This document shows positions 341 through 43,209 of a stretch of DNA of 51,712 bases, one piece after another. The DNA lies in IMG/VR virus record IMGVR_UViG_3300037608_000248, positions 1 through 51,712 of that record, one strand, 5' to 3'. The position numbers were made by a program, and so were the translations under genes. The number at the start of each line of letters is the position of its first letter. Positions within the stretch are counted from its first letter, which is position 1. The notes under the pieces are model-generated. The model did no database searches and had not been told where the DNA came from. It saw only the letters and a list, made by a program, of their open reading frames with translations. This DNA is from a virus. Taxonomy: Duplodnaviria > Caudoviricetes.

Positions 341-550
341 CTATTTCAAATTCCCCATCTTTTCAATGTAGAACAGGGCCTGATATTGCTTTGCCTTGAT
401 GTCTTGTCGTAGCTGGTCACGATCAGGCCCCGGTTCCATTAGGTTAACCTTACGCTTAAGTGAAGCGATCTGTTCAGAAAGTGCTTGGGTTTCCTGAATG
501 AGATCTAATATATTTTCAGTTGGTTTGGTCATCTCATTTTCTCTAATCAC
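341..550 (-). CDS. Small coiled-coil hypothetical protein
   Basis: 69-aa ORF overlapping the end of the RM gene; true start may be MTKPT. Confidence 0.55.
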   Translation of the reverse strand: MIRENEMTKPTENILDLIQETQALSEQIASLKRKVNLMEPGPDRDQLRQDIKAKQYQALFYIEKMGNLK

Positions 551-3245
551 TCTCTACCAATTTTTGATACCGCTTCATTAAATCTGCAACTCTTTCGGCT
601 TCGGTGGTGAAGCCTGGGCCACCGTAGGCGGCGACAACAGCCCTATCAAGATTGTTGTGGGCCTTTGTTAATTCGGGTGGCGTTGTTAGAGGATCATAAA
701 GATCGGCCAATGAACTTTCCGGATAAAGATCCCTTGCATCAAGCACCTGCTGCGCCGCTGATTCAATAGCCCCTTTTTGTTTCCCTGTTGGCTCCGGCCA
801 GGGGAAGTTGTTATAAACCAAGGTGTTAGAGTAACGATAATCGCTTTTTAGGCGACCACAAACTGTTTTTACCCATATCATATGAATGGATGAGGTAATT
901 ATACCAAAATGATAAAGAGTAGCCCCGGGTAGTGTAAAAAGTGCATTGCTTGCGATAATTTTGTTATTAACAAAACCGATTGGTATATACTTTCTGTTTT
1001 GTGATGAAGTGCAAGGTATTGCTATATAATCACAATCGGGCTGCCTTATTTCTCCAAACAGTGCTGGAGTTGCTGCTAATCGCTGGGTGGCTTCTCGCTT
1101 ACTTGAATCCCTGTGTAACCGCACCTTTTCTATTATTTCAAGAAGTTTTGCAGATTTTTTAATTTCAGTTGGGCTAGCTTTTACTAACCAAATGCACCAT
1201 CTATTAGTTTTATGGATATAGTCTGATCCGCTTATGAATTTTCGAATGTATTGCTCTAACCCTGGATTTTCACTAACGATACTCTTCTTAATGTCTTCCT
1301 CTATTATTAAATGGCCACCATCGTTAGGCATGCTTCCAAAAAACATCTCAGGAACGTCGCAAAGAGGTTTAGATCTATTAGAGATAAATATATTCGGCGC
1401 ATCAACTAAATAAGGATTTATATTATTTGCTGCAACAAACTCTTCACCTTGAGTAAATATGGTCTTTGTCCTGCTATCGGTGTAAGCACGAAAACCGACA
1501 ATCACACAATGCACAGCAGCTTTACCTCTTGCTTCGTTATCCCATCTAAATGTGCGATAGGCAAAGCGTATGTCGATGGCATATTGTTCAATTAAGGGTT
1601 TCCATAAAATTGGCACTTGCAAGCCTTGTGAAATTGAATTTGTGGAAACGAAGGCAATTTCAATCTTTGTTGAATGGATATAATTAGCTGCTTTAAAATA
1701 CCAAGACGTTACATAGTCAAGATTATTAAAGCTTTTAATTGTGCCAAATACGGTGGCGATATCTTCCTTCTGATTTGAATTCATTAATCTCGCACCGACA
1801 AAAGGTGGATTGCCCAGGATATAGTTCAGCTGGTTTTTCGGCACAACATTTTCCCAATCAATCCTTAATGCATTACCATGAACAATTGTGGCTGAATGAT
1901 CTAAAGGTAACCTGGCAAAATAGAGGCCAAAATGTTCACTCACCAGCATGTTCATCTGGTGATCAATTAACCACATGCCGACAACGGCAATCTGGCAGGG
2001 GAACTCTTCATATTCGATGCCGTAAAACTGGTCCACATTGACTTTACAGTATTCTGTAATATCCATGACCATCTGGCCGCCGGTATCGATAAGCATTTTT
2101 AGTAATTCTAATTCCAGCAGGCGCAGCTCTTTGTAAGCGATAATCAGGAAGTTACCGCAGCCGCAAGCCGGATCAAGAAAGGTTAGCTTACTGAGTTTTT
2201 CGTGGAAGAATTGAAGCTGTTTGCTGTTGCCTTTTACCCGTTCGAATTCCTCCCACAGTTCATCTAAGAATAGCGGCTTTATAACCTTCATGATGTTTTC
2301 TTCGCTGGTGTAGTGTGCGCCCAGGGCGCGGCGTTCCTCCGGATTCATAACCCCTTGGAACATGGCGCCGAAGATAGCAGGCGAAATATAGCCCCAATCA
2401 AAAGTGCAGCACTCTAAAAGAATGGTGCGCATTTTGCGGTTGAAATCAGCAAAAGGTAGGCGTTCTCGGAAGAGGGTGCCATCAATATATGCAAACCTTT
2501 TGAGCTCTTCCGGTAACATGGTTTGCTTGTCCCGCTCTTCTTGTGGTGTATCGAGTAATTCAAAAAGGCGGGCTATTCTCGACGATAAATCTGAGCCGTC
2601 TTCTTTCGAGTTGTTGATGTAGTCGAAGAAAATGTTTTTCTCAAAGATGCCAGTATCATCGGCAAAGAGGCAAAAGAGCAAGCGGACCAGGTAAACCTCA
2701 AGCGCGTGGCCGGTATAGCCGTGGTCGCGCAGAATATCATGCAGCCTGGCCATCTTTTCTGCAGCTTTAACATCTACTTCTTTGCTTACATTGGTAATGG
2801 TGGTCGCTTTATAACCAGCCAGATCGGCAAAGAGTTTAACGTTTTTATGAAGTTGAGAGGTTTTGAAGTTCCATATCTGGCCAGTGCTGAGGCGGTATAG
2901 GCGGATGTTTTGAAAATCACAAACCATTATATAATCGGGCAAGTCTTCATTTTCGAGATGGAAAGCATAATCTTTTGCCTGGGTGTAAGCACGATCTAAG
3001 CTTTTACCGGCAGATTTCATTTCTACAAGGATAACGCCTTTCCAAATCAGATCAATATAACCTGAGCGGTCAGCGCTCATCGGTACCTTTGTTTCGAAAG
3101 TGCCAACTCGTTTGCGATCAATGCCGAAAACACCAAAAAAGTCATTTAGAAAACTTTGGGCTTCTGAGGCTTCGTCGGTTGCATCTTTCCATTTTTTTGA
3201 GAAGGCTAAGGCATTTGCTTTAATGTCTATCCAGGGGAGTGGCAC
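543..3245 (-). CDS. MmeI-like (type IIL/IIG) fused restriction endonuclease-adenine methyltransferase
   Basis: N-terminal E..EAQSF.NDFF..FG and IDLIWKG..LVEMKS nuclease; GAHYTS, LDPACGCGNFL (motif I), GNPPF (motif IV); C-terminal RLKSDYRYSN..VYNNFPWP. Confidence 0.9.
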   Translation of the reverse strand: MPLPWIDIKANALAFSKKWKDATDEASEAQSFLNDFFGVFGIDRKRVGTFETKVPMSADRSGYIDLIWKGVILVEMKSAGKSLDRAYTQAKDYAFHLENEDLPDYIMVCDFQNIRLYRLSTGQIWNFKTSQLHKNVKLFADLAGYKATTITNVSKEVDVKAAEKMARLHDILRDHGYTGHALEVYLVRLLFCLFADDTGIFEKNIFFDYINNSKEDGSDLSSRIARLFELLDTPQEERDKQTMLPEELKRFAYIDGTLFRERLPFADFNRKMRTILLECCTFDWGYISPAIFGAMFQGVMNPEERRALGAHYTSEENIMKVIKPLFLDELWEEFERVKGNSKQLQFFHEKLSKLTFLDPACGCGNFLIIAYKELRLLELELLKMLIDTGGQMVMDITEYCKVNVDQFYGIEYEEFPCQIAVVGMWLIDHQMNMLVSEHFGLYFARLPLDHSATIVHGNALRIDWENVVPKNQLNYILGNPPFVGARLMNSNQKEDIATVFGTIKSFNNLDYVTSWYFKAANYIHSTKIEIAFVSTNSISQGLQVPILWKPLIEQYAIDIRFAYRTFRWDNEARGKAAVHCVIVGFRAYTDSRTKTIFTQGEEFVAANNINPYLVDAPNIFISNRSKPLCDVPEMFFGSMPNDGGHLIIEEDIKKSIVSENPGLEQYIRKFISGSDYIHKTNRWCIWLVKASPTEIKKSAKLLEIIEKVRLHRDSSKREATQRLAATPALFGEIRQPDCDYIAIPCTSSQNRKYIPIGFVNNKIIASNALFTLPGATLYHFGIITSSIHMIWVKTVCGRLKSDYRYSNTLVYNNFPWPEPTGKQKGAIESAAQQVLDARDLYPESSLADLYDPLTTPPELTKAHNNLDRAVVAAYGGPGFTTEAERVADLMKRYQKLVESD

Positions 3246-3277
3246 AGTTTCAGCTCCTACTCAATTTTAAGTATTGT

Positions 3278-3775
3278 TCATTCACCGTATATAACTTTTT
3301 TGGCAGTTGAGCTTAAAACATCAACCAAGATATCCTTAAAAATACCATAAGTTTCACTGCCTACCTTTAGCATAATCTTTTTAAACTTAGTTGCCTCAAG
3401 CTGGGTTTTAGGGTTATCAGAAACTAAGTATTCAATTGAATTCTGTAAGGTTTCTTTTTCTTCATCCGTTAAACTATCAAGTTCTAAGGCAAGCTCTTTT
3501 GCCGCTTTCACTTTTTCGTTGGTCCACGGATAAGGTTGTCCGCATTCGATACAAAAAGAAGGAGCCTCTAACGTCTGAGTAGATAAACACACAATACCAT
3601 CTACGTGATATTCGCCTCTTATGTCATTTTCGCAATTTGGGCATTTAGTAATCGTTTTAGCGCCACATTTTTTACAGTAGTTTTGACGGAATTGAGGGTT
3701 TTTACTATAAGATTCATTTGTTACATGTCCGTTCAAACATATCTGTGCTATGTCATAATAACCCACCGAAATCAC
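3278..3775 (-). CDS. DUF2321-like zinc-ribbon protein
   Basis: YDIAQICLNGH, CKKCG, CPNC, PSFCIECGQPYPW pattern. Confidence 0.75.
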   Translation of the reverse strand: MISVGYYDIAQICLNGHVTNESYSKNPQFRQNYCKKCGAKTITKCPNCENDIRGEYHVDGIVCLSTQTLEAPSFCIECGQPYPWTNEKVKAAKELALELDSLTDEEKETLQNSIEYLVSDNPKTQLEATKFKKIMLKVGSETYGIFKDILVDVLSSTAKKVIYGE

Positions 3776-3809
3776 TCCTGATCATTTATTTTTTATTATC
3801 CAATCGAGC

Positions 3810-4517
3810 TTAATCTCTTTTATATTTGTGAAAAGGAATAACTTTATCGGCTTCTAACAGATCTTCTGTTACGGATACACTGACATCGCTTTTATTAGAC
3901 ACTCCGGAATATGAATCTTTGCATCGAATAGCATCATACATTTCAGGCGATATCTCTTCTGGAAGATCATCAATTACTTCATAGAAATCCTTTGCGTTAA
4001 AAAGAGGGCAAAGATCGGCCCGGGAAATGTAGAGACAGTTTTCAAATAGCTGCTTGATGTGTTGTTTGTCGATTGTCCAGTTACCGTTTGAGTTTAAATA
4101 GCTGTAAGTCAGCCAATGCCGGGTGGGATTGATGATCCGGATCTGCTTGCATCTTGTTAACTTACGTTCGACGAAGTCAGCCCGGCCCATGTATTTATCA
4201 CCATAAGGTTGGCAATGAGCTTCCTGGTGGAGTAGATTAACTGCTTGTTTCCAACAGTTATAAATGTTACCTATTTTATAAATATCTCTGCTGCTGTAGG
4301 GTTTGCCGCCAACAGTTAAAACAGAACTCTTCCAGCCGCATACTATTTTATAGAGTTGTTCAAAATCCGGAAAGCTTGAGATATCATAAGCGCAGGTATA
4401 TATGGCTTCTTTGCCTTCACCTGCCACACTGTGGCTGTCAGCACGTCTAGCCAGGGTGACCGCAAGGTCATGATTGGGAGAAGTGCTGTAAGAGAATTTA
4501 AGAGAAATCATGGTCAC
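3810..4517 (-). CDS. Hypothetical protein, translationally coupled to 4514-4888
   Basis: 235-aa ORF; GTGA start/stop overlap with the upstream gene. Confidence 0.75.
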   Translation of the reverse strand: MTMISLKFSYSTSPNHDLAVTLARRADSHSVAGEGKEAIYTCAYDISSFPDFEQLYKIVCGWKSSVLTVGGKPYSSRDIYKIGNIYNCWKQAVNLLHQEAHCQPYGDKYMGRADFVERKLTRCKQIRIINPTRHWLTYSYLNSNGNWTIDKQHIKQLFENCLYISRADLCPLFNAKDFYEVIDDLPEEISPEMYDAIRCKDSYSGVSNKSDVSVSVTEDLLEADKVIPFHKYKRD

Positions 4518-4888
4518 CTATCCTCTATTAACTCTTTAGCTTCCTTGAGTTGCTCAAGGCGTTTTGCTTCTTCGCTAATTTGAACAAGCAGCTCATTTGA
4601 TCTGGATTGTTCTTCCTCTGTGAGATTATCTTTCTCGGATAGATCAGTATATTCGCTTATTAAAGTAGCTATTATTTCTTCAGATTCTTTAACCATTCCC
4701 TCCATAACGGCAGCAGAGGTTTCATTGAAAGAATCAGAAGCTATCTGTTCAAATGTCCGGTAGTCGTAACTGCTCATTCTTTTTGTTTCGTTGATATAAA
4801 AAACAACAACAATGACTGCTATAATTACCACCGATCCAATAATTGCATAAGTAATATAATTAGGGGAATTTTTTGGGCTTTCAGTCAC
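4514..4888 (-). CDS. Single-pass membrane protein homologous to an internal tape measure segment (putative superinfection exclusion / TMP mimic)
   Basis: AGGAGG RBS; TM helix aa ~11-31; aa 40-58 match TMP aa 514-532 at 15/19; aa 83-93 match TMP 561-571 at 8/11. Function is inferred. Confidence 0.8.
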   Translation of the reverse strand: MTESPKNSPNYITYAIIGSVVIIAVIVVVFYINETKRMSSYDYRTFEQIASDSFNETSAAVMEGMVKESEEIIATLISEYTDLSEKDNLTEEEQSRSNELLVQISEEAKRLEQLKEAKELIEDR

Positions 4889-4974
4889 AATAATCCTCCT
4901 TGTAAATTGGCTTAAAATGCAAACCTATAATTATTTACTATCGATTCTGCCAAACTTAGTTATTGGGATACATC

Positions 4975-5388
4975 TCAGCCTCTGTTGTAAATCCATGAAC
5001 ATGTGCCGATAAACTCTTCGGTTACATCGAAATGCTCTGCCAGCTCGTGGATGCTTCTATGCCCGGCCAGAACAGCCCTGTATAGTAGGTGCCGGGGAAC
5101 AAGGTAGTTTGCTGCCCAGCGAAGGGCCAGCTTGTCATATTTGTTATAAACAATGCGGTCTGTTTGGGCAAAAGCCATCATATTCCTGGCGCAGGTAAAA
5201 TGATGGCCAAGCTCTTCAGCTAAGATGCAGCGTAATAACTTGCGGCTTTTCCGGGTTTTTTCGTGGAGTAAGATCATCGGTTGCTCGCCCGGGCGCGAGT
5301 CGTATAAACCAAGCAGGGGGGCCGGAAGGTAAGCAAATTTGACCCCGATACCTTCAGCTGCTGCTATTTTGAATAAGCAGTCGGGCAT
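4975..5388 (-). CDS. ImmA/IrrE-family metallopeptidase (anti-repressor protease)
   Basis: LAEELGHH motif, A..WAANYLVP, C-terminal ELAEHFDVT HTH; same arm as an ImmR-like repressor. Confidence 0.85.
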   Translation of the reverse strand: MPDCLFKIAAAEGIGVKFAYLPAPLLGLYDSRPGEQPMILLHEKTRKSRKLLRCILAEELGHHFTCARNMMAFAQTDRIVYNKYDKLALRWAANYLVPRHLLYRAVLAGHRSIHELAEHFDVTEEFIGTCSWIYNRG

Positions 5389-5419
5389 AGAATATACCTT
5401 TCAATCAGTGTCCTTTAAT

Positions 5420-6346
5420 CTAAAGTATTTCATTTAGATGCCATGAAGTTTTTTCTTTATTCAGGGCGTGGTTAATAATGGTTGATTTGCTCAATAGTAA
5501 TTTCGATTCGATGTCTAAGGCATTGCCTGCTTTCTTAATAACACCGTATAGAGCTTTTCCACTGATAATTGAATCATCATTTAGTATGGCTTCAAATGTG
5601 CCTCGACGAATGTTAATCCCGGTAATTCGGCCTGAAGTTATAGTGTCCTCTGAGACAATTTCTTCGATATTTACTAGGTTACTGATTATTTTGGGTATTT
5701 CTTCGTGCTTGATATCCCATGTATAAAACCCAGAATAGCTGTTATCCCATTTAATGCTAACGTTTATTTTATTCTTGTTGATATACTCTAAAAAGTTTTT
5801 ATAGCTAATTATTGCCCTGGAGCCTAAGTCCGCGGCTTGTTGTAAGATAATATCTGGATCGTTTCCAGCATGCAGCAAGTCATAAATTCTAGTCATGGTG
5901 CTAGTGATTAGGGGTTCACTGATAGACAGTTGATCATCGTGGTAATTTTCAAGCTCTATGCCAAGCGACCCTTCGAAGCTCCTTTTAAAATATAATTGGG
6001 TTTGATCTATTACATGCGTGGGTATTCTGCCCATTTTAGCAGGTGTTTTGCTTAACGATAGAGCGATTACATTTGTCATCAATTGAAACTGGGATAAGAT
6101 ATCTGAAAGAACATTGATTGACACCTTGTTATCAAGCACTGTATTGCCTGATAAAACGAATATGAACTTATCTTTGTCCTTTAGCTCAAATAGCCTTTTT
6201 CTTTCTTCTTTAAGCTCATCAAGTCTATTTTCAATAGACATGCGAGATAGATCCATTATGTCTGATTCGTTCTTAGGGATGGAAGACAAAATATTAATGG
6301 TGTCATTAATTTTTCTTTCAATTGCAACCAGGGGCGAATTATCCAT
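5420..6346 (-). CDS. Hypothetical protein, partner of the nucleotidyltransferase-like gene
   Basis: 308-aa AT-rich ORF overlapping 6339-6830 by 8 nt. Confidence 0.75.
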   Translation of the reverse strand: MDNSPLVAIERKINDTINILSSIPKNESDIMDLSRMSIENRLDELKEERKRLFELKDKDKFIFVLSGNTVLDNKVSINVLSDILSQFQLMTNVIALSLSKTPAKMGRIPTHVIDQTQLYFKRSFEGSLGIELENYHDDQLSISEPLITSTMTRIYDLLHAGNDPDIILQQAADLGSRAIISYKNFLEYINKNKINVSIKWDNSYSGFYTWDIKHEEIPKIISNLVNIEEIVSEDTITSGRITGINIRRGTFEAILNDDSIISGKALYGVIKKAGNALDIESKLLLSKSTIINHALNKEKTSWHLNEIL

Positions 6347-6830
6347 TGTTAAGCCCTCCCAAGCCCTTGATTACTTCGTCTTGGCCCATAACAATTATTC
6401 CTTTGGGAACATCTTTTCTATCGTAGCCAAATTGCCCGCGTAGATAGTTTCTGTGGTTTATTTCATCGTTACTTGATTGCTTGTCTATCATTGTACTACA
6501 TAAAACATCACAGTAATAGCCTTTGCAGCAAGATATTAATTGATAAAAATTATTTTTTTGTTCAGGTGTCAGCTGCAAATTCCTGTTATAAAATATAGCA
6601 ACATCTACATCATTAGGGTTAATTTTATTAGTCGTGAAGCTACCATCAAGCCATAATTCGACTGGTACGGCTATTTGTGATAACATGCTTAGCCATTCAA
6701 AGGATTTGAGATAAACTATTGGCCTTTTTTGCGAGAAAGCAAACTGGTCCACGAATTGAGAGTAAAATTCCTCGTGAGTATAATTGTGCAGCCCAGGCGG
6801 CAAATAACCATTGTTATTAAATTCGATCAT
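6339..6830 (-). CDS. DUF6932-like, pol-beta-superfamily nucleotidyltransferase
   Basis: FNNNGYLPPGLH N-terminus; WLDGSFTTNK.NPNDVD (GS...DxD) motif. Confidence 0.7.
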   Translation of the reverse strand: MIEFNNNGYLPPGLHNYTHEEFYSQFVDQFAFSQKRPIVYLKSFEWLSMLSQIAVPVELWLDGSFTTNKINPNDVDVAIFYNRNLQLTPEQKNNFYQLISCCKGYYCDVLCSTMIDKQSSNDEINHRNYLRGQFGYDRKDVPKGIIVMGQDEVIKGLGGLNNG

Positions 6831-6858
6831 AAATTGACCTCAACTTAATAATTGCTTC

Positions 6859-6888
6859 TCACCCTTTCCCCTTCTTCATCTCTTCCCG
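6859..6888 (-). repeat. Duplicated 3' end of the repressor gene
   Basis: accctttccccttcttcat identical at 6861-6879 and 8154-8172; reads REEMKKGKG* vs repressor REDMKKGKG*. Confidence 0.8.
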
Positions 6889-6926
6889 GGGTCTTGCGGG
6901 TCATTACTCTTATAGCTATTGCTTAA

Positions 6927-7382
6927 TTATTCAGTTTCGAAGGGTGACTCTTCTGTAACCCTATTTAACATCATTTCCGTTGACCTATACAGAGTATCCA
7001 AACCACTTTCGAAATTACTTAACGAAGATTGATAGTCTTTTTCTTCGTAAGCGTTGATACCTTCTTCGAGCAGATCAATTCCCGCTAAAAACCTTCCGTA
7101 TAGATCTCTTAGCATATCTGGTGGTTCCTTGCTTCTCGCATTCTCTATTTGCAATTTTAGGTGATCGATATCCGCTTCTGCTTCATCTGAAGAAGGGAGA
7201 GATATCTCTTCTAACAAAGCAAGTAATCCATATTCCTTTGATGACAAGAAATTAAAAGCTTCAACCCATTCGTCAAGAGCTTCTTCTTCGGTGTTGTTCG
7301 TCTTAGAATCACTACAACCGATCACAAGAAGGATTAGGATCATTAAAAATAATAATGATGCTGTTCTTCGCAATTTGAACAC
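6927..7382 (-). CDS. Acidic lipoprotein
   Basis: Basic N-terminus, hydrophobic stretch, lipobox LVIG-C; very acidic helical body. Confidence 0.8.
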   Translation of the reverse strand: MFKLRRTASLLFLMILILLVIGCSDSKTNNTEEEALDEWVEAFNFLSSKEYGLLALLEEISLPSSDEAEADIDHLKLQIENARSKEPPDMLRDLYGRFLAGIDLLEEGINAYEEKDYQSSLSNFESGLDTLYRSTEMMLNRVTEESPFETE

Positions 7383-7443
7383 CTCGTTGCTGACTGGACG
7401 GTGATTCGTTCATGCCCGTCCTTTCAGCGTTTTTAAAATTATG

Positions 7444-7472
7444 TTGACTAATGTCAATTCATTTAGTAAACT
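7444..7472 (+). promoter_or_regulatory. Putative sigmaA promoter driving the repeat RNA
   Basis: TTGACT-17bp-TAAACT; overlaps palindrome TTGAC-TAAT-GTCAA, whose other half gives a leftward TTGACA. Confidence 0.55.
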
Positions 7473-7481
7473 GTAATTGCG

Positions 7482-7613
7482 ATAAACTCCCGTTGGTTGC
7501 ACTGCAACCTTCGGTAACAATTAACTCCCTGCGGTTGCAATGTTCAACCGTAGGCACAATTAACTCCAAGGGGTTGCGCCTTAATCGGGCTCAACCCCTT
7601 GTCCTTTCTTTTG
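7482..7613 (+). ncRNA. Putative small RNA of three A(A/T)TAACTCC-like + GGTTG/CAACC hairpin units
   Basis: Hairpins at 7490-7514, 7528-7554 and 7567-7601; G-U pairs favour the + strand; pyrimidine/U tail after the last stem. Confidence 0.55.
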
Positions 7614-8129
7614 ATGAACCCAGCAGTCATCTAAAAAGGTGCCTTCTAAAGAGATGTATTTATCGGCAACCACTTTTAGGTGGTAACATTTTTTAAAATA
7701 TGCGATTTCAACCTTGCGACCACTATCTTTAACCGCCTGAACAGCTTTAGCAAAGTCTCCATCGCCGCTAACTAATATGGCTATGTCATAATGATCCAAA
7801 AAGGCTTTTGTCACCATATCTACTGCAAGGGCAATGTCTACGCCTTTTTCAACCATGCGCCCTTCATTTCGCTGTTCCAGTCTGCCAAGTTCAACCTGAA
7901 AATCGTCAATACGATACAGCTTCGCAAAAAACTTTTGCTGATCCTTATATCTTGAAGGATCACTGCTTTGATCTATAGGGGCATTATAATAATAAGTTCT
8001 TACCAGTTCTCGGGTATCGCCAACTAAGGTTTTTACAAATTTATCAAAATCTAAATCAGTGCGGCCCATAGCATTTTTTATGCCGTAGTATAAATTAGAA
8101 CCATCAATAAATACCATAACTCGCTTCAT
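7581..8129 (-). CDS. NYN domain (LabA/DUF88, PIN-like) ribonuclease
   Basis: VFIDGSNLY, EKGVDIALAVDM, LVSGDGDF, GRKVE motifs. Confidence 0.92.
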   Translation of the reverse strand: MKRVMVFIDGSNLYYGIKNAMGRTDLDFDKFVKTLVGDTRELVRTYYYNAPIDQSSDPSRYKDQQKFFAKLYRIDDFQVELGRLEQRNEGRMVEKGVDIALAVDMVTKAFLDHYDIAILVSGDGDFAKAVQAVKDSGRKVEIAYFKKCYHLKVVADKYISLEGTFLDDCWVHQKKGQGVEPD

Positions 8130-8151
8130 ATGATACCCCCTTTTTAAATGC

Positions 8152-8478
8152 TTACCCTTTCCCCTTCTTCATATCCTCTCGGGCCCTTTTCAGTATAGCC
8201 TCTATCTCATCAAGCACATCCTCAGTGATACCTTCGGCGCCGTTTAGTGAGTGCGCTGCCTGGACTGTGGGCTGGGTGCGGTAGTCTGACCTCCCAAGCA
8301 AATAATCGGTGGAGACGTTGAAGTAGTTTGCGAGTTTAATCAGTATTTCATAATCTGGCTGTCGTTTGCCAGCTTCATATGCAGTATATGCAGGTCTAGT
8401 TATCCCCAAAAAGGTTGCAACTTCTTCTTGAGTGTATTCTTTTTCGTTACGTAGTTCCTTCAATCTTATAGGCAGCAT
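8152..8478 (-). CDS. XRE/ImmR-like phage repressor
   Basis: RLKELR..TQEEVA..LGITRPAYTAYEAGKRQPD..LA.YFNVSTDYLLGR HTH; divergent from cro. Confidence 0.9.
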   Translation of the reverse strand: MLPIRLKELRNEKEYTQEEVATFLGITRPAYTAYEAGKRQPDYEILIKLANYFNVSTDYLLGRSDYRTQPTVQAAHSLNGAEGITEDVLDEIEAILKRAREDMKKGKG

Positions 8479-25093: not shown

Positions 25094-25981
25094 ATGGCTA
25101 AACGCAGTCCAGAACGCAGCAAGGCATATGAGTTATATAAGGCGCATAATGGAGATATTCAGATCAGGGAGATTGCAAGGCAGTTAGATGTCCCCGAAAA
25201 GACTATAAGTGGTTGGAAGTGTAAGGATAAATGGGAGCTCCAGCTTACCGGAGTATATAAGCCGGTCAAGCGGAGTACTCCAAAACAGAAAAGAAAAAAA
25301 CGCAGTACTCCGGTTGAAGTATCGGAAGAAACTAAACTGACCGAAAAGCAGCGGCTCTTCTGTTTGTATTATGTAAAAAATTACAATGCAACGCAGGCAG
25401 CCTTAAAGGCAGGGTATAGCAGCGATAGTGCGCACGTGATTGGCTCTGACAACTTAAGGAATCCTAAAATAGCAGCTGAGATACGCCGCGTGAAAGGTTC
25501 ACTGGTTGAAGACCTGCATTTTGATGCTCAAGACGTTTTGATGGAGTATGCCAAAATAGCTTTTAGCAACATAGGGGAGTATGTTGAGTTCGGGCAAAAG
25601 GAAGTTCCAGTAATTCAAGAAGGCAAGATAGTTAAAGACCCGGATACCGGAGAACCTATAACCTACGAAAAAAGCTTTGTAAGTCTCCGGGAAAGCAAGA
25701 CATTAGACGGCTCCATAATTACCGAAGTATCCCAGGGCCGTGAAGGAATAAAAATTAAATTTGCTGACAAGATGAAAGCGCTTGAAAAACTGGAGCGCTA
25801 TTTTGATTTATTGCCGGATGTATGGAAGCGCAAGCTCGAGGAAGAAAAGCTTGAGATAGAGAAGCGCAAAATAGAAAGTGGTGATCCAGCAGTAGAGGGA
25901 GCTAAGACCAGGGAGAGCGTGAATAGTTTTGTAGGTGCCTTAGGAATGGCGGCAGAGGAAGTCTGGGAAAATGAGAAATAG
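25094..25981 (+). CDS. Terminase small subunit with N-terminal HTH
   Basis: LTEKQRLFCLYY..NATQAA.KAGYS; K.KALE.L. Confidence 0.92.
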   Translation: MAKRSPERSKAYELYKAHNGDIQIREIARQLDVPEKTISGWKCKDKWELQLTGVYKPVKRSTPKQKRKKRSTPVEVSEETKLTEKQRLFCLYYVKNYNATQAALKAGYSSDSAHVIGSDNLRNPKIAAEIRRVKGSLVEDLHFDAQDVLMEYAKIAFSNIGEYVEFGQKEVPVIQEGKIVKDPDTGEPITYEKSFVSLRESKTLDGSIITEVSQGREGIKIKFADKMKALEKLERYFDLLPDVWKRKLEEEKLEIEKRKIESGDPAVEGAKTRESVNSFVGALGMAAEEVWENEK

Positions 25982-27299
25982 AATAGCAGCCCAGCCTTTT
26001 AAATTTCAACCATTCTCTATACAGCAGAAAAGAGCTTTAACCTGGTGGCACCCAAAAAGCCCCCACTCTGATAAGGACATTATCATCTGTGACGGGGCAA
26101 TAAGAAGTGGTAAGACAGTATCGGAATTAATTAGCTTTACCATGTGGTCAATGTCTACATTCGAGAATGAAACCTTTATCCTGGCCGGTAAGACAATGGG
26201 AGCTTTGAAGCGGAACGTTTTGAACCCACTGTTCAAGATACTTACTGCCCAGGGTATTAAATACCGCTACATTCGCTCGACTGACGAACCGCGGGTAGAG
26301 ATAGGCTCTAATATTTATTACATCTTTGGTGCAAACAACGAGCTGGCCCAGGACAAGATACAGGGTTTAACGGCAGCCGGCGCATACGCAGATGAAGTGC
26401 CGCTGTTTCCACGAAGCTTTGTGGAGCAGATGATCGGCCGCTGTTCTGTAGACGGCGCCAAGATATTTTTAAACGGTAACCCTCTGGGGCCAAAGCACTG
26501 GTTCAAGACAGAATTCATTGATAAGGCTGTAGAAAAGCGTATCCTATACCTCCATTTCACGATGGATGACAACCTCACCTTAGCCGAAAAGGTGAAGGAA
26601 CGTTATAGGCGCATGTTCACCGGGGTATTTTACCAGCGCTATATCAAGGGCCTCTGGGTAATGGCTGAAGGCCTTATTTACGATATGTTCAGGGAAGAAG
26701 AACATACCATTGAGTCAAGCGACCTGCCAAGCATTAAAGCCAGCTGGGTTGGCATCGATTACGGGACCGCAAACCCTACAGTATACCTGTTAGTAGGTTT
26801 AGGCACAGATCAATGCCTGTATGTATTCGATGAGTACCGCTGGGATAGCCGTAAAACTGGCCGGCAAAAAACAGATAAAGAGTATTCCCATGATTATATA
26901 GGCTGGGTTAACAGCAACAAAGGAATTCCAAAATATACTTTTTTCGATCCAAGTGCCAAATCCTTTGGCTTGCAGCTACACCGGGACGGCGTAAAGGGTG
27001 TTGTCCCGGCTAAGAATGCGGTAATAGATGGTGTTCGCGCTGTATCGTCTCTCTTCGGAGCAAAAAGGTTATATATCGTAAAAGATAAATGCCAGGGTTT
27101 GGTTGAGGAACTACAAGATTATGTCTGGGATGAGAAAGCCCAGGAACGCGGGGAAGATAAACCGCTTAAAGCAAATGACCATGGCCCGGATGCGCTTAGA
27201 TACGTAATACTATCTATTCGGCCAGTTTGGCATAAATGGATTGAAGAACAGAGAGACGAAAAAATAAAGCCCGGTTTGTTGCCGGAAAACATTGCTTAG
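25971..27299 (+). CDS. Terminase large subunit (PBSX family)
   Basis: DGAIRSGKT, AYADE, NP.GP.HW, GIDYG..NP, DPSA, NDHGPDALRY. Confidence 0.95.
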   Translation: MRNRIAAQPFKFQPFSIQQKRALTWWHPKSPHSDKDIIICDGAIRSGKTVSELISFTMWSMSTFENETFILAGKTMGALKRNVLNPLFKILTAQGIKYRYIRSTDEPRVEIGSNIYYIFGANNELAQDKIQGLTAAGAYADEVPLFPRSFVEQMIGRCSVDGAKIFLNGNPLGPKHWFKTEFIDKAVEKRILYLHFTMDDNLTLAEKVKERYRRMFTGVFYQRYIKGLWVMAEGLIYDMFREEEHTIESSDLPSIKASWVGIDYGTANPTVYLLVGLGTDQCLYVFDEYRWDSRKTGRQKTDKEYSHDYIGWVNSNKGIPKYTFFDPSAKSFGLQLHRDGVKGVVPAKNAVIDGVRAVSSLFGAKRLYIVKDKCQGLVEELQDYVWDEKAQERGEDKPLKANDHGPDALRYVILSIRPVWHKWIEEQRDEKIKPGLLPENIA

Positions 27300-31499: not shown

Positions 31500-32108
31500 G
31501 TGTTGATACCTAAAATATTGCATTTTATCTGGGTTGGAGGAAATCCGAACCCGTTTGTGAAGAACATCGAAACCTATAAGAAGTTTAATCCAGATTGGGC
31601 AATACAACTGTGGACAGATGGGAACTTGCCGAAGCTACAGAATAAAAATATATATAACAGCATACCAGTGCCCACAACTAAAGCCGATCTGTTAAGGTTG
31701 GAAATACTGTATCAATACGGCGGTGTTTATGCTGATATCGATAGTGTTTGTCTTAAGCCACTCAATAAGATGGTAGCCGGGCATGAAATGTTCTTTGCGT
31801 CTCATACTATTAAGGAAAAAAAGGTTGAGATAAACTGTATCGGTGTTACAGCTGGACATCCTGCTATAAAAGACCTGCTGGACGGCCTGCCGGAATATTG
31901 GTCCGAGCTGGTTGAATCCAAAAAAGGGAAGCTGAGTGTCTACTGTCTCTATACTTATTTACGGAAAAGAATCGGAGAATGTGCATTGTTACCGCTTGAA
32001 TATAATTGCTCAAAGAACTATGCAACAGAAAATACTTTCATCCTTCAGCATAACGTGCATACGTTCAAAGACTCTGTTAACGCAAATAATAAGTTTAGGG
32101 TGATATAA
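31500..32108 (+). CDS. Glycosyltransferase (GT32 / DXD sugar-binding family)
   Basis: IPKILHFIWVGG, NPDW, ADLLRLEILYQYGGVYADID. Confidence 0.92.
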   Translation: MLIPKILHFIWVGGNPNPFVKNIETYKKFNPDWAIQLWTDGNLPKLQNKNIYNSIPVPTTKADLLRLEILYQYGGVYADIDSVCLKPLNKMVAGHEMFFASHTIKEKKVEINCIGVTAGHPAIKDLLDGLPEYWSELVESKKGKLSVYCLYTYLRKRIGECALLPLEYNCSKNYATENTFILQHNVHTFKDSVNANNKFRVI

Positions 32109-32780
32109 ATGATTGACGTTATTTACTTAGCAGCCGGCCAGGGCAAGAGAGCTAAGCTTGGATATCCGAAGCAGTATGCCAGACTCGGTGGAAAGCCGAT
32201 CATGGTCCACGGGCTGGAAGTGCTGCAACAGATGCCGGAAATAGGCAGAATCATTATTGTTTGCCAGTATGATGAGTTAAACCCTAAGTATGTAGGGGAT
32301 ATCCTTCCCTATGTAAGTCCAAAGAAAGAGCCGTTGTTAATTCAGGGTGGCGATACCCGGCAACAGTCAGTTGCCAATGCTCTGAAGCACGTAACAACCG
32401 AGCATGTGCTTATCACCGAGGCTGTAAGACCGTTTATAACAGCAGAACTGATCAGGACAGTCATCAACACAGATGGAGACTTTGTAACGCCCTGGATAAG
32501 CCCGCTGTCAACAGCATTAACCAGGGACGGCGAATATATAGACCGTGACAGCGTTGGCCAGGTGCAGATGCCCCAAAAATATAAAACTAAACTATTAAGG
32601 TATGCGCACCAACTAACCTACTTGGACAATACAACAGATGATGCAGCTCTGGTTATTCAGACTACAGAGTTAAAGCCTTTGCTGGTGCCAGGCATTGAAG
32701 AAAATATCAAGATCACCACACCACTGGATCTGGTGATTGCAGAAGCAATATACCAAATGCGGCAGAACGGGAGGGAATAA
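32109..32780 (+). CDS. IspD/TarI-family cytidylyltransferase
   Basis: LAAGQGKR..PKQY, GGDTRQQSV, EAVRPF, QMPQ, TDDA, NIKITTP.DL. Confidence 0.92.
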   Translation: MIDVIYLAAGQGKRAKLGYPKQYARLGGKPIMVHGLEVLQQMPEIGRIIIVCQYDELNPKYVGDILPYVSPKKEPLLIQGGDTRQQSVANALKHVTTEHVLITEAVRPFITAELIRTVINTDGDFVTPWISPLSTALTRDGEYIDRDSVGQVQMPQKYKTKLLRYAHQLTYLDNTTDDAALVIQTTELKPLLVPGIEENIKITTPLDLVIAEAIYQMRQNGRE

Positions 32781-32785
32781 GTGAA

Positions 32786-33004
32786 ATGGAAATAGCCCGT
32801 ATAGAAATCAGCGATTCTGATTACGAGAAATTAACTCCCGAAGTGATGAAAGAAATCGAAAACAGACTCAATGAAAGAATTAGCGCTGCATGGCAAGAAG
32901 AGTTAAAACGGCTTGAAAACCACATGCTTTACGGCGCTAAACCAAGCATAAAGAACCCTCGGGGAATTATTCCGTCAGGTATTATCTCGTCAGGGGTGAG
33001 TTAA
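32786..33004 (+). CDS. Hypothetical protein
   Basis: 72-aa ORF with GGAGG RBS. Confidence 0.6.
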   Translation: MEIARIEISDSDYEKLTPEVMKEIENRLNERISAAWQEELKRLENHMLYGAKPSIKNPRGIIPSGIISSGVS

Positions 33005-33005
33005 A

Positions 33006-33644
33006 GTGTGGCCTATCATAACCGGTTCCAGCAGGGGCATAGGAGCGGCCATAGCAAGGGAATTTTGCAGACGTGGTCATCTATATTATGGCTTTTCGCG
33101 CTGGAATGATGTAGATGTATCAGATTATAGCTCTGTTAAGAGAGAATTTGAAGGTTTCTACCATCCTGAACAACACCTGCCGGAGGTATTAATCAACAAC
33201 GCCGGAATAGTAGAACTCGGAAGTGTGCTTGAACTCACTCCTGAAGACTGGGAAAAACAATTCGCCGTAAATTTACACGGCGTTTTTTATTGCTGTAAGG
33301 AGTACGTGAAACTATTACGGGCAAAGGATAAGCCCGGCAAAATTATAAACATTGCCTCTACTTCGGGCATGCTAACACCAAGGCCAGGCCGGTCAGCGTA
33401 TGCGGCCAGCAAGGCTGCTGTGATAAGCTTCAGCCTTAGCCTGGCAGAAGAGTTAAGGCCTTACGGTATAAAGGTATACTGTGTGGCTCCCGGGGCCTGC
33501 AATACAGACTTACGAAAAGCAATTTACCCGGATGATAACTTTGATAACATGATGCAGCCGGCAGATTTAGCCAGGTTTGTAGTCGATATAGCAGAGGGTG
33601 GAGAAATGTTAGACAACCAGGTATTGATAGCGAGGGGGCTGTAA
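33006..33644 (+). CDS. SDR-family oxidoreductase (putative pentulose-5-phosphate reductase)
   Basis: TGSSRGIG, NNAG, YAASK catalytic motif; adjacent to TarI-like gene. Confidence 0.9.
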   Translation: MWPIITGSSRGIGAAIAREFCRRGHLYYGFSRWNDVDVSDYSSVKREFEGFYHPEQHLPEVLINNAGIVELGSVLELTPEDWEKQFAVNLHGVFYCCKEYVKLLRAKDKPGKIINIASTSGMLTPRPGRSAYAASKAAVISFSLSLAEELRPYGIKVYCVAPGACNTDLRKAIYPDDNFDNMMQPADLARFVVDIAEGGEMLDNQVLIARGL

Positions 33645-33645
33645 C

Positions 33646-33801
33646 GTGATACAGGACATCTATGATGAGATTAACCGCGGCTGCCCTACCTGCAAACAAG
33701 ATGAAGGAGGGCAACACGAGCCAAACTGCCCTCTTGTGGAAAATTTTAAAAATGCTTTTAGCAAGGGGCGATCCGATGAATACAGATGTCACAGTCTTTA
33801 A
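33646..33801 (+). CDS. Small Cys/His hypothetical protein (51 aa)
   Basis: Read by hand: GTG start after GAGGGGG; CPTC...H.PNCP. Confidence 0.4.
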   Translation: MIQDIYDEINRGCPTCKQDEGGQHEPNCPLVENFKNAFSKGRSDEYRCHSL

Positions 33802-34894
33802 TCGTAAGCATTTCCCGGTAGAAGTTGAGGGTTATACGTTTATGCCTGGTAAACTGACTAAGATCCGGATAGAAACCAATTCAATGAAATTCAGGAATAT
33901 CCGGACCACATCAGGCTTACGAGTTAACCGCGAAAATAATGAAAAATACATGCCTCTTGCTGGTGAAGCTGTAAATATGGTTTTTGATGACCGTAACCAG
34001 CACGCAGGACACGCTTACAGGCACGCAATAGAGGCTTTAGCTGACCCTATGCTTGCAGGGTTGCGTAAATTAGGCGTAAATGCCGACTATGCATCAAGGC
34101 CGACCGTAAATCTTAATGTGAGGTTTTTCAGCAGCTACCGGATAAATCAACAGGGCAAGGTAGAAGTGGGCCCCAATGATGTATTTTACAGCCATGGTAT
34201 TGGTGATAAAAACTACTGGCTGGCTAATAAAATAGAAGACTTTAGATGTGCCATGGTGCCCGGCCCAGCCTGGAAAGAGCGGATTGAGGCCGGAGGCTAC
34301 CAGGGAGAAGTATTCGTTACCGGTTATACCAAGCTGGACCCGGTGTTCTGGGGTGAATACGAAAAACAAAAAAGAGATAAGCCTTATGTTGTCTGGGCAC
34401 CTACTCATGGTTACAACTACAGGCACAAGGGCAGGAGCAGTTATCCCTGGTGTGTTGATCTGATCAATGAAATCCCCGGTGAATATGAAACCTGTTTGGC
34501 AATGCACCCTACCAGCCGGCTAAACGCAAGACAGAAGCACGACGTGACCTTACAGGAGCTGGTTGATGCCGATGTAGTGATCGCAGATGCCGGGAGCACA
34601 CTATATGAAGCCTGGATACTTGGAAAGCCGGTTATATTCCCGGACTGGCTATGCAAAAATGATGTCCTGGCTCATTTTAAAAGTGACCCGGGCAATTTAG
34701 AGTATCGAATTTACAATGAGGGGATTGGGTATCATGCGAAAGATATGGCGCACTTGGTAGAGCTGATAGATGTAGCTCTGGACAAGGGCATGCAGCAGCA
34801 GGAGCAGGATTTTGTTGAAAGCATCTGCCCGAAGCATACAAGAGGAAAGGCCGGAGATAACTGTGCTGCTGTTTTAAAGGGGTTGATTGAGTGA
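33776..34894 (+). CDS. TagB/TagF-like CDP-alditol phosphotransferase (GT-B fold)
   Basis: SHG..DK.Y, VTGYTKLD, WAPTH, HP, ADVVIAD.GS.LYEA..LGKPVIF; AAGGGG RBS before ATG 33776. Confidence 0.8.
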   Translation: MNTDVTVFNRKHFPVEVEGYTFMPGKLTKIRIETNSMKFRNIRTTSGLRVNRENNEKYMPLAGEAVNMVFDDRNQHAGHAYRHAIEALADPMLAGLRKLGVNADYASRPTVNLNVRFFSSYRINQQGKVEVGPNDVFYSHGIGDKNYWLANKIEDFRCAMVPGPAWKERIEAGGYQGEVFVTGYTKLDPVFWGEYEKQKRDKPYVVWAPTHGYNYRHKGRSSYPWCVDLINEIPGEYETCLAMHPTSRLNARQKHDVTLQELVDADVVIADAGSTLYEAWILGKPVIFPDWLCKNDVLAHFKSDPGNLEYRIYNEGIGYHAKDMAHLVELIDVALDKGMQQQEQDFVESICPKHTRGKAGDNCAAVLKGLIE

Positions 34895-39534: not shown

Positions 39535-39990
39535 ATGGACGATAAAGCTAAACGATCTGCTGAAAATATGGCCAGACTTAATCAGGCGCACAAAGAAATG
39601 ATTGGCGAACAAGAACAACAGTTAATCGTCGACTTTGATGCTGCTTATGATGAGTGGAAGGCTAAAGACAAGCCGCTCATGGTCAGGTTTAAGGGAAAAA
39701 TATATCCCGTTCCCAGGAGACAACCATTTGCGTATTCTCTTTTTATTTCAAGACACACAAAAAGACAGTACGACCATGAGCTGCGAAAAGAGGTCCCAAG
39801 GCTTTTTGTGCCAGACGACAAGGCAGAAGAATACGTCCGTCTAATGTTTGGTGAAAAGTTTCTCCGGGCTATGCAGCAAAGCGATGTAGAGGTTGATTTT
39901 GTAATGGATAGAATAGCACCTGAAATCCATAAGCAATGGCAGTATGAACAAGCTACAGAAGGAAAAAACGCACAGACCCCAGGCTCATAA
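39535..39990 (+). CDS. Tail assembly chaperone (gpG-like)
   Basis: Between tube and TMP; ends at a slippery site. Confidence 0.8.
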   Translation: MDDKAKRSAENMARLNQAHKEMIGEQEQQLIVDFDAAYDEWKAKDKPLMVRFKGKIYPVPRRQPFAYSLFISRHTKRQYDHELRKEVPRLFVPDDKAEEYVRLMFGEKFLRAMQQSDVEVDFVMDRIAPEIHKQWQYEQATEGKNAQTPGS

Positions 39991-40208: not shown

Positions 40209-40224
40209 GGTAGGTGATATATAG

Positions 40225-43209
40225 TTGGCATTTAACATAGGCGAGGTATCAGCATCCATAACGGGCGATAACATGCCTTTTATGCGTTCAATTAATGAAA
40301 CCCACCGTGCAGGTGACAACTGGGCTACACAGATGGGCGGTAATTTGCAGCAAGTCGGTGGCCAGATGCGCACCCTGGGAAGCACTGCTTCAATGTACCT
40401 AACAGCCCCAATCTTAGGTGTAGGTGTAGCTTCCGGCAAGATGTTCATGGACTTTGAGAAGTCTATGAGCGAAGTAACCGGATTGGTAGGTGTATCAAAA
40501 GAGCAGGTTTCACAATGGAGCGATGAATTGCTAAGCCTTGGCCCAGCCCTTGGTAAAACACCCCAGGAGTTAGCCGACGCGCTTTATTTCGTTACTTCAG
40601 CCGGTTTACGTGGTGCAGAAGCCATGGAAGTCTTAGAGATGTCAGCTAAAGCCTCTGCTGCCGGGTTGGGTGAAACTAAAGTAATTGCTGACCTGGTAAC
40701 CTCTGCAATGAACGCATACGGCTCTGAGAACCTGTCTGCAGCCCAGGCAACAGATATTTTAGTAGGGGCTGTCAGAGAAGGTAAGGCAGAAGCCGCAGAG
40801 ATGGCCGCTTCAATGGGCCAGGTGCTTCCTATTTCCTCAGCCATGGGCGTTGAATTCTGGGAAGTAGCGGCAGCAGCGGCAGCCATGACCCGGACCGGAA
40901 CAGACGCGGCTACGGCTAACATGCAGCTGAAGAATATCATGATGGGCTTACTTAAGCCATCGGAACAGGCCAATAAAGCGCTTGAATCAATGGGCACTTC
41001 TGCCGGCGAGTTGAGGCAGAAGATCAAAGATGATGGCTTGCTTGCCACACTCATGCACTTAAAAGATCTCACCAACGAGTATGGCGAAGACATTATGGCT
41101 CAGGTGTTCCCGAATATTCGTTCTCTATTGGGTGTTCTCGATTTAATGGGCGAGAACATGGAAGACAACATAGAGCTGTTTGGCCGTATGGAAGACACCA
41201 CCGGTTTACTGGAAAAAGCTTTTGAATCAGCAGCTGAAACAGCCCGTTTTAAGTGGAATCAGGCAATCGCGGAATCACAGGCCTCACTTATTACATTGGG
41301 TGAAGCTGTAATGACTGCAGCTATACCTGTTATGCAAGAACTGGTTGGCGTTATCAAGAGTTTAACTGAATGGTTTAAAGGCTTAGATGAAGAGCAACAG
41401 CAGAATATTATCCGCTGGGCTGGAATAACCGCGGCCATAGGGCCGGTTCTTGTAGTCTCAGGCACTCTTATTAGCAGTTTGGGGACCATTTTGAAGCTGT
41501 TTGGCGGCTTAGGGTCTGCGTTAATTGGTCTGCCGGGTATGTTTACCAAAACAGCTACGGGTATGGCAAGCGTTTCAACCGCATCGGTTGGTTACAGCAG
41601 CGGTATGGCCGCTGTAGGAGCAGGTACGAAAACTACAACGGGCCTTTTGGGTGGTCTTAGCACTAAACTATCTGCCCTGGGTGCAGCAGGTGGCCCTATC
41701 TTGGGTGTAGCAGCTGCCCTGGGTATAGCAGCGGTCTACTGGAACGAGTACACCAAGGCAATGAGCTATGACTACCGCACTTTTGAACAGGTGGCCAGCG
41801 ATGTCTTTAACAATGTATCAAACCAGTTCTTAACCGGTTATGCCTCGATGATAGACGCTCAGGAAAATGCACAAAAAGCAATGCTTGAATCACAGATTGC
41901 CTTCCTGGAAGAAAAGGAATCGCTTACGGAAGAAGAGATCCAGCAGCTTGAAGACTTGCGCACTACAATGCTGGTGGTCGAAGAAGAAGCAGCGGAAAAG
42001 CGCAAAGCATTACTACTCATTAAAGAAAAAGAACTTACCGATGCAATTATTGATGAAACTATCAGATCTCACGACGAAATAACTGCTCTGTTTGATGAGC
42101 ATAAGCAACAGAAGATGGATGATCTTGCTGAATGGCAGGCTGAAGAGCTACAGAAAATTATAGATCATCATGCAGCAATGGGGACTGTTGGAAGCGATGC
42201 CTTTTGGGCTGATATGGCCAGGTTGGAAGGGGAACATGGAGAAAGGCTTGCTCTTATTAATGCACAGCTGGGAGAAATACTCGCTGAATATGCCGAAGAG
42301 CTTGCAAAAATCGGCCTTGTTTACGATGAAGAACTTGGCAAACTAATTCCTATACAGGAAAAATACCACAGAGAACTTGGCAGCAAGTTACAGACTGACA
42401 TGGCTGAAATGAAAACCCAGTACGGGGTACTCAGCCGGCGCAATGTAGCTGAATACCGGAGAGGCATAGAAGACGAAACGCCAGCTACTGAAACAGCAGC
42501 CAAAAATACTGGAACCAGAAGCAGGACAGCTCTCAAAGAAGGCTCTGACGATACCTATTCACTTGGTGTTGACTTTGCTGAGGGTTTCAGAGGTGGGATT
42601 TCTTCTAAAATAGGTGACCTGGTTGGCACCGCTATTAAACTTGTGTCTGATGCTTACAATGCCGCTAAAAACTGGCTGGAGGCAAGATCACCTTCTCAGA
42701 AAACTTGGAGACTTGGTGAAGACTGGGGCGCAGGACTTGCAGGCGGGATTAACGCCTCAGAGAGTCTTGTTCGCAGCACAGCAGAAGGAATAGCCTCTTC
42801 AGCCGTGCAGCCTTTAATTGGAGTAGGCCAGCAGATGTCTGACATGGTTAATAGCTGGTGGGATATCCCCTCTTCTAAATCTTCAGGGGGCTCTTCTGGT
42901 AGCTGGTGGGATCTTGATTTCGGCAAGAAGTCTTCGACTGGCAACTGGTGGAACCTTGAGTTTGACCGGGGTGGTATTGTTCCCGGTCCGATTGGTGCAG
43001 CGCAGCTTGCTTTGGTTCACGGTGGGGAAACAATACTGCCTACTCATAAAACGGGCAATCAGCTTGCCCAGGGAGTGAGCTTTAACCTGGAAGGCTTGTT
43101 TGCCGGTGCGAATATCACGATAGGCTCAGACCAGGACGCTAAAAACTTAGCCCGTGAAATATACAGGCTTGCTGATATCCAGGCACGATCGGAAGGGGTG
43201 ATAATGTGA
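40225..43209 (+). CDS. Tape measure protein (TP901-type core)
   Basis: 994 aa, helical; T.PI.G.G, FE..M..V, A..LY...SAG; hydrophobic central segments; SPS; GG.V.GP..A.VHGGE.ILP. Confidence 0.95.
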   Translation: MAFNIGEVSASITGDNMPFMRSINETHRAGDNWATQMGGNLQQVGGQMRTLGSTASMYLTAPILGVGVASGKMFMDFEKSMSEVTGLVGVSKEQVSQWSDELLSLGPALGKTPQELADALYFVTSAGLRGAEAMEVLEMSAKASAAGLGETKVIADLVTSAMNAYGSENLSAAQATDILVGAVREGKAEAAEMAASMGQVLPISSAMGVEFWEVAAAAAAMTRTGTDAATANMQLKNIMMGLLKPSEQANKALESMGTSAGELRQKIKDDGLLATLMHLKDLTNEYGEDIMAQVFPNIRSLLGVLDLMGENMEDNIELFGRMEDTTGLLEKAFESAAETARFKWNQAIAESQASLITLGEAVMTAAIPVMQELVGVIKSLTEWFKGLDEEQQQNIIRWAGITAAIGPVLVVSGTLISSLGTILKLFGGLGSALIGLPGMFTKTATGMASVSTASVGYSSGMAAVGAGTKTTTGLLGGLSTKLSALGAAGGPILGVAAALGIAAVYWNEYTKAMSYDYRTFEQVASDVFNNVSNQFLTGYASMIDAQENAQKAMLESQIAFLEEKESLTEEEIQQLEDLRTTMLVVEEEAAEKRKALLLIKEKELTDAIIDETIRSHDEITALFDEHKQQKMDDLAEWQAEELQKIIDHHAAMGTVGSDAFWADMARLEGEHGERLALINAQLGEILAEYAEELAKIGLVYDEELGKLIPIQEKYHRELGSKLQTDMAEMKTQYGVLSRRNVAEYRRGIEDETPATETAAKNTGTRSRTALKEGSDDTYSLGVDFAEGFRGGISSKIGDLVGTAIKLVSDAYNAAKNWLEARSPSQKTWRLGEDWGAGLAGGINASESLVRSTAEGIASSAVQPLIGVGQQMSDMVNSWWDIPSSKSSGGSSGSWWDLDFGKKSSTGNWWNLEFDRGGIVPGPIGAAQLALVHGGETILPTHKTGNQLAQGVSFNLEGLFAGANITIGSDQDAKNLAREIYRLADIQARSEGVIM

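Follow-up and report, generated by a model that had tools for sequence, protein, structure and literature searches.

Why does a provirus carry, in its lysogeny arm, a gene for a small membrane protein that resembles part of the same phage's tape measure protein (TMP)? The question arises from a DNA stretch of 51,712 nt (the window) taken from an IMG/VR virus record that belongs to the provirus class and is 87% complete; no integrase was seen within the window, and the gene content points to a Bacillota-like host. The 124-residue product, called here the mini-protein or mini, is encoded by a gene that is not an assembly artefact because contigs from other sequencing runs agree over it: contigs from four runs contain no variant letters in this region, and a single contig, of run X3, covers positions 4500-5053, including the whole gene. 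The analysis of the mini-protein indicates that it is a genuine and unusual feature, for which a role in defence by means of a copy of the phage's own TMP is proposed from its sequence. The features considered are collected in Table 1.

Table 1. Positions in the window of the mini gene, its neighbours and the tape measure gene.
Feature	Position	Strand	Remarks
MmeI type IIG restriction enzyme	543-3245	-	Intact-looking
DUF2321 protein	3278-3775	-	
Cys-containing gene, 235 aa	3810..4517	-	phrog_16260 on aa 6-108; overlaps mini stop
Mini gene, 124-aa TMP-mimic (proposed) membrane protein	4514..4888	-	GTG start, TGA stop
Mini second block, aa 83-93	4610..4642	-	Predicted turn of helical hairpin; 8/11 as in own TMP
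Mini core block, aa 40-58, D-Y-R-T-F-E-Q motif	4715..4771	-	15/19 identical to own TMP
Mini membrane helix, aa 12-31	4796..4855	-	Family-specific
Mini ribosome-binding site AAGGAGG	4895..4901	-	From sequence; 6 nt ahead of GTG
ImmA-like protease	4975-5388	-	Mini gene directly after
PDC-M63A/B	6339-6830 and 5420-6346	-	PADLOC E 5e-27 and 1e-14
Predicted lipoprotein, 151 aa	6927-7382	-	No family match
NYN nuclease	7581-8129	-	Resembles HEC-09
cI-like HTH protein	8152-8478	-	
Repressor-strand arm	543..8478	-	Unbroken minus-strand run, cI-like gene to MmeI
Tape measure protein, 994 aa	40225..43209	+	PF10145, TIGR01760
Last hydrophobic helix of TMP, aa 481-507	41665..41745	+	Directly before copied segment
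TMP segment homologous to mini, aa 495-606	41707..42042	+	Cores 41764-41820 and 41905-41937

The similarity between the mini-protein and the TMP is confirmed. In a local alignment, residues 21-122 of the mini-protein were colinear with residues 495-606 of the TMP and 45 of the 101 aligned residues were identical, and a BLASTP comparison gave an E value of 6e-11. An initial annotation of this DNA had proposed a pairwise alignment with shuffle statistics as a check; the real Smith-Waterman score was 143, and none of 2000 shuffles came near it (mean 41, sd 6.3, maximum 74). The two matching blocks described in that annotation were recovered, with 15/19 identical residues between mini 40-58 and TMP 514-532 and 8/11 between mini 83-93 and TMP 561-571, but the true match is longer and takes in nearly the whole mini-protein. 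The codons that it quoted were correct, the mini gene has its own ribosome-binding site, and in both proteins a hydrophobic helix precedes the match, with a Kyte-Doolittle peak of 2.9 in the mini-protein and 1.8 in the TMP. Taken by itself, the second block carries little weight: a K-x-x-LTEEE pattern also drew an unrelated chance match (L002). Both sequences are equally acidic, with net charges of -13 (mini) and -12 (TMP segment). When 250 six-frame segments from the window were compared, the only paralogous pairs were mini/TMP and the HTH domains of cI and Cro.

A codon-position analysis of two ungapped mini/TMP blocks revealed identity at 20/29 and 13/28 first positions, 20/29 and 16/28 second positions and 7/29 and 5/28 third positions. 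The same codon was used at 16 of the 44 identical residues with degenerate codons, where 18.1 +/- 3.1 are expected at saturation, and Ser51 of the mini-protein is encoded by TCT versus AGC in the TMP. Third positions are thus randomised while first and second positions have been kept, and therefore selection has acted on the mini-protein at the protein level. When neutral drift to the observed third-position identity was simulated in 2000 runs, about 8% amino-acid identity was left, the frame stayed open in less than 1% of the runs and the core identity of 14/16 was reached in none. The earlier view that the similarity was kept at the protein level, and does not come from a recent DNA duplication, is upheld by both codon-position pattern and codon usage. 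Readings of the gene as a recent duplication, a product of gene conversion or a pseudogene are ruled out by the codon positions, and a recent or decaying copy of the own TMP is thereby excluded; capture from a distant TMP is excluded by the mini family described below and not by the codon pattern alone.

A profile made from the mini-protein and three TMP segments has been searched over 1.84 billion representative proteins (E<=0.001). The 10 matches comprised five TMP-sized proteins (P0002 and P0005-P0008), four small proteins and P0011 (2368 residues, with vWA and repeats), which was discarded as a chance match. The small proteins were the window mini, P0009, P0010 and P0012, thus adding three more mini lineages; P0013 is a cluster mate of P0009, and P0010 lies on a contig of 1 kb and could be incomplete. 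Word-based searches also gave two close TMPs, and L010 supplied one more TMP of this group. Among 2741 local targets, a TMP profile built without the window sequence found the mini-protein (E 1.5e-12) and a profile of the other mini ectodomains found the window TMP (E 4.7e-11).

The mini-protein is homologous to the post-membrane module of the PF10145/TIGR01760 group of TMPs, and itself has no TMP family match, with 124 residues and a gene in the lysogeny arm outside the tail operon. The minis constitute a gene family and not a decayed fragment because they share a membrane helix of their own (window mini 9-11/22 identical to the other minis versus 1-3/13 to TMPs) and a 4-residue deletion that is common to the four lineages and was found in 0/8 TMPs examined. 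In the tree, which is unrooted, the four minis fall on one side with a support of 84/89 (not starred). Outside the core, the minis are about 25% identical to TMPs, and P0009 and P0012 carry an N-terminal zinc ribbon; this zinc-ribbon/TM N-module is widespread among phage proteins of unknown function. The C-terminal module of these TMPs sits behind differing N-terminal domains, PF10145 or PF20155, and extends more than 200 residues past the point where the minis end, which according to the TMP model is in the middle of a helix. Since the module continues past this mid-helix end, we infer that the minis arose from TMPs, although the tree is unrooted.

Other searches were carried out for further members. 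Word-index protein searches returned the mini-protein itself as the only match, and one of them, which scored its best 8000 candidates, missed the known minis and is thus insensitive. No relative with more than 50% identity was found outside the mini's own cluster, and 50,697 phage records contained no match to the mini or to the TMP C-module. Scans of IMG/VR confirmed no mini locus, 12 + 2 pattern matches being attributed to chance by HMM, and a scan of 20 of the 64 parts of the metagenome collection gave L002 as the only match, by chance. No TMP C-module relative was confirmed in the GTDB genomes. Fragments of related phages are represented by L001/L003, L004 and L010; the three related-phage records searched contained no mini, and a TMP match was found in L010 only. 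The ESM Atlas gave no usable match for the mini-protein or the downstream 235-aa protein, a Foldseek comparison with BFVD returned no match at E<=0.001, and a profile search of the PDB gave weak coiled-coil-type matches alone (best E 0.006), with no solved relative of the TMP segment.

The structure model of the mini-protein (mean pLDDT 77, from a four-row alignment) consists of a membrane helix at residues 9-37, a break at S-Y-D-Y-R-T and a hairpin of two helices, 46-84 and 91-123. The D-Y-R-T-F-E-Q motif of the core block is located at the predicted helix break and N-cap. The model of the TMP, low in confidence overall (mean pLDDT 47), breaks at the same two motifs. In all eight TMPs examined or aligned, a hydrophobic region and a Gly/Ala-rich linker are present, with the last hydrophobic helix immediately ahead of the motif, and one strong TM helix is predicted in each of the four minis. 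The TMP linker of the window (41530-41665), also Gly/Ala-rich, is nearer to that of the distant P0006 than to that of the close P0003, a pattern suggestive of an exchange of segments between these TMPs.

Regarding the topology, the available part of a study on phage TP901-1 places both ends of its TMP outside and the stretch between the hydrophobic regions inside, as a prediction (PMC5099701), and by analogy the last TMP helix is predicted to run from inside to outside. The three other minis have 3-5 Lys/Arg residues before the helix and 1-2 after it, and from these Lys-rich N-flanks, together with the zinc ribbon present in two of them, an N-in/C-out orientation is predicted. The window mini has 1 Lys/Arg before the helix and 3 after it and leans to N-out/C-in; its topology is uncertain because these flank charges are opposite to those of its relatives.

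The comparison of alleles in the core revealed a closer match to the phage's own TMP. At residues 40-55, the window mini is identical to its own TMP at 14/16 positions and to two close TMPs at 14 and 11, versus 6-11/16 for five TMPs of other lineages and 5-11/16 for the three other minis, so that the core indeed matches the own TMP better than other lineages. Past residue 58 there is no preference, with 16/66 identities to the own TMP, 11-16 to other TMPs and 16-18/62 to the other minis. At sites at which none of the three other minis has the residue of the window mini, the residue of the own TMP is present at 6/12 in the block and at 3/42 elsewhere (Fisher p 0.002, post hoc, with a core block chosen after seeing the data). 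In the core-block tree the window mini falls among the TMPs and the other three minis group together (92/96). Ancestral retention could explain part of the core match because in this block the window TMP is the best match for P0009 and P0010 as well and an AU test did not reject the mini clade there (p 0.295). The data, which come from one mini/TMP pair in one genome, hint that the mini core tracks the allele of its own TMP.

The mini gene is located on the repressor strand, as had been annotated; its neighbours are defence genes, and the cI-like gene is 3.3 kb away. A search of the minus strand directly upstream gave no consensus promoter, and for this reason read-through would supply the mini-protein in the lysogen. 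The TGA of the mini gene and the GTG of the following gene overlap at 4514-4517, and the 235-aa protein encoded there, for which no relatives were found in IMG/VR or phage records, is a possible partner. PDC-M63A/B is a two-gene candidate defence system composed of a DUF6932 nucleotidyltransferase-like protein and a 308-aa partner. The 151-aa predicted lipoprotein holds, in the lysogeny arm, a position like that of the exclusion lipoprotein Ltp and is a second exclusion candidate. On the plus strand, a sugar cluster (31500-34894) located between the minor capsid and scaffold/capsid genes includes genes for a DXD glycosyltransferase, an IspD-like cytidylyltransferase, a short-chain dehydrogenase and a weakly TarB-like protein, and could have a part in decorating the virion or the surface of the host. 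The tail assembly chaperone gene (39535-40210, plus strand) contains, ahead of its stop and near 39961-39969, a slippery site made of an A-run, which fits the usual -1 frameshift expected for such genes.

Named superinfection-exclusion families include HK97 gp15/YebO-like proteins and T4 Imm, and HK97 gp15 occupies a moron position in the tail operon. Profiles of these families gave no match for the window mini, P0009, P0010 or P0012. Between P0009 and a RefSeq 'immunity to superinfection' protein, the match is limited to the zinc ribbon (E 0.04). A zinc-ribbon protein with the annotation 'immunity to superinfection' is encoded directly before the TMP gene in Pseudomonas phage YMC11/02/R656 (L027:2740-3327), and its match with P0009 is confined to the zinc ribbon. 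The window mini shares with superinfection-exclusion proteins a small size and a membrane anchor.

The likeness to known systems has been evaluated from the available parts of the sources cited. Ltp of Streptococcus thermophilus phage TP-J34 is membrane-tethered, encoded in the lysogeny module and acidic in its outer part, and it prevents the injection of DNA, the TMP being its proposed target (PMC3952083). Like the ltp gene, the mini gene has a lysogeny-module position, on the repressor strand. However, Ltp is a lipoprotein with repeat domains for which binding to a positively charged end of the TMP has been proposed (PMC3952083), whereas the mini-protein has a TM helix and is homologous to an acidic TMP segment. 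It has no Cys among its 124 residues, and thus no lipoprotein anchor, and an uncleaved-type TM helix; no match to Ltp repeat domains was found in Pfam, PHROG or NCBIfam at E<=0.01. HK97 gp15 is a small exclusion protein predicted in the inner membrane, and sensitivity to it follows the tail tube/TMP genes (via PMC10883804); it has no sequence match to the mini-protein, and the part of the source available mentions no TMP homology for it (PMC10883804). Tab of Pseudomonas phage JBD26 is a prophage defence against TMPs close to its own, but it acts on tail assembly, is encoded between the terminase genes and needs an anti-Tab; the excerpt on Tab mentions no TMP origin (PMC10884400). In the window, the terminase genes (25094-27299) overlap with no gene between them, and the mini gene is 20 kb away.

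The membrane-bound SNIPE probably engages TMPs during genome injection (PMC13190303); it is a nuclease with DUF4041, whereas the mini-protein is TMP-derived and without a catalytic domain match. The nearest defence by look-alike is P-FimU of F10-like Pseudomonas prophages, a protein encoded by the prophage that becomes part of an envelope structure on which infection depends and has been diversified by phage-phage competition (PMC12952977). P-FimU copies a host pilin and blocks adsorption, whereas the template of the mini-protein is a virion protein of the phage itself. By analogy, the mini-protein would work like Ltp or gp15, yet by sequence or position it is outside Ltp, gp15, Imm and Tab. 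No TMP-derived exclusion protein was found in the literature covered, which consisted mostly of papers outside subscription journals, without supplements.

We consider superinfection exclusion by mimicry of the TMP at the membrane, directed against phages sharing the TMP module, to have slightly better than even prospects. The initial annotation had suggested a membrane-anchored TMP decoy that blocks DNA entry or, alternatively, poisons tail assembly. The exclusion part is partly supported by the protein-level conservation, the separate membrane family, the defence-gene strand and the core match; tail-assembly poisoning is disfavoured because the mini-protein is membrane-anchored and an outward TMP-like part is predicted in three relatives. 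Competition for the host membrane factor of the TMP, a mechanism that the annotation had missed, is equally good. Exclusion aimed at TMPs has precedents in Ltp (PMC3952083) and in HK97 gp15 (cited in PMC10883804), and the association of the lambda TMP with ManYZ is a precedent for the pairing of a TMP with a host membrane factor (PMC13190303).

In such an exclusion mechanism, the repressor-strand transcript would supply the mini-protein in the lysogen, and the protein would sit N-in/C-out in the membrane, like the last helix of the TMP hairpin. Upon ejection of the TMP by a related phage, the D-x-R-T-F-E-Q turn and the helical hairpin of the mini-protein would engage, with about the same probability, either as a truncated dominant-negative subunit in the TMP oligomer or by occupying the host membrane factor. 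Specificity would be set by the core allele, so that heteroimmune phages with the same tail module would be excluded even with other N-terminal domains. A block at the surface would have no cost for the prophage, and heteroimmune phages with the tail module in common would be stopped by it.

Other explanations have been weighed against exclusion. Shared ancestry without a present link, in which the same helical module is kept by both proteins and the mini-protein now has a function unrelated to phage entry, is unlikely but deserves real consideration, because the minis are a separate old family with about 25% identity to TMPs beyond the core, all rows show some conservation of the core, plain descent is not rejected by the AU test and the N-module is widespread in phage proteins. 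Against it are the excess of own-TMP residues in the block (6/12 versus 3/42 elsewhere, Fisher p 0.002, post hoc) and the defence-gene surroundings. The mimic could also be a counter-defence decoy that soaks up a TMP-recognising host sensor, allowing the induced prophage or incoming kin to escape. TMP-recognising SNIPE acts at the membrane (PMC13190303), Avs18 binds a central helical TMP segment of ~130 residues (PMC13581612), a decoy would likewise track the own TMP allele, and the charge bias of the window mini permits a cytoplasmic C-part. We regard such a decoy as distinctly improbable, given a gene that lies on the repressor strand with defence genes, outside the early lytic and late operons, and the outward-facing domain predicted in three relatives.

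The overlap of stop and start codons at 4514-4517 and the location in a defence cluster would suit a two-gene abortive system in which an incoming TMP, once sensed by the mimic, leads to activation of the 235-aa protein by the mimic through which it is translationally coupled. Such overlaps are common in operons, the 235-aa neighbour has no effector or PADLOC match and none of its relatives was found in IMG/VR or phage records for a co-occurrence analysis, which makes this system very unlikely. Highly improbable, too, is a poison of tail assembly that binds new TMP or its chaperone in the cytoplasm: prophage-expressed Tab has an action that maps to the TMP's C-terminal part (PMC10884400), but the mini-protein has a membrane anchor and relatives with a predicted outward face, and such a poison would hit the own TMP best, hence the need of Tab for a late-operon anti-Tab. 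That the mini gene is a decayed or recently captured TMP fragment without function is scarcely credible. The mini-protein corresponds to a longer TMP module cut short, and no relative above 50% identity was found outside its own cluster, but the gene has its own ribosome-binding site, start and stop, a distinct and stronger TM helix, characters shared with three other minis and a codon-position pattern that is incompatible with drift.

Beyond the exclusion proposed for this phage, a more general process may be tentatively considered, although it is rather less than probable: that temperate phages repeatedly turn a piece of the ejection machine into an immunity gene, in the form of a truncated, membrane-anchored TMP paralogue that would act as an allele-specific dominant-negative subunit of the entry channel and would be kept matched to the cognate TMP by selection. 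If this is true, each mimic would mark a TMP segment that drives channel assembly or host-factor binding. As to how the TMP crosses the membrane and forms a DNA channel, the mini-protein may point to the key residues, namely the turn with D-x-R-T-F-E-Q that follows the TMP's last membrane helix. A natural copy of 124 residues is a small, expressible probe of this TMP segment. If the mini-protein does exclude phages, it would represent immunity by self-mimicry, with a target range that would be readable from the sequence alone.
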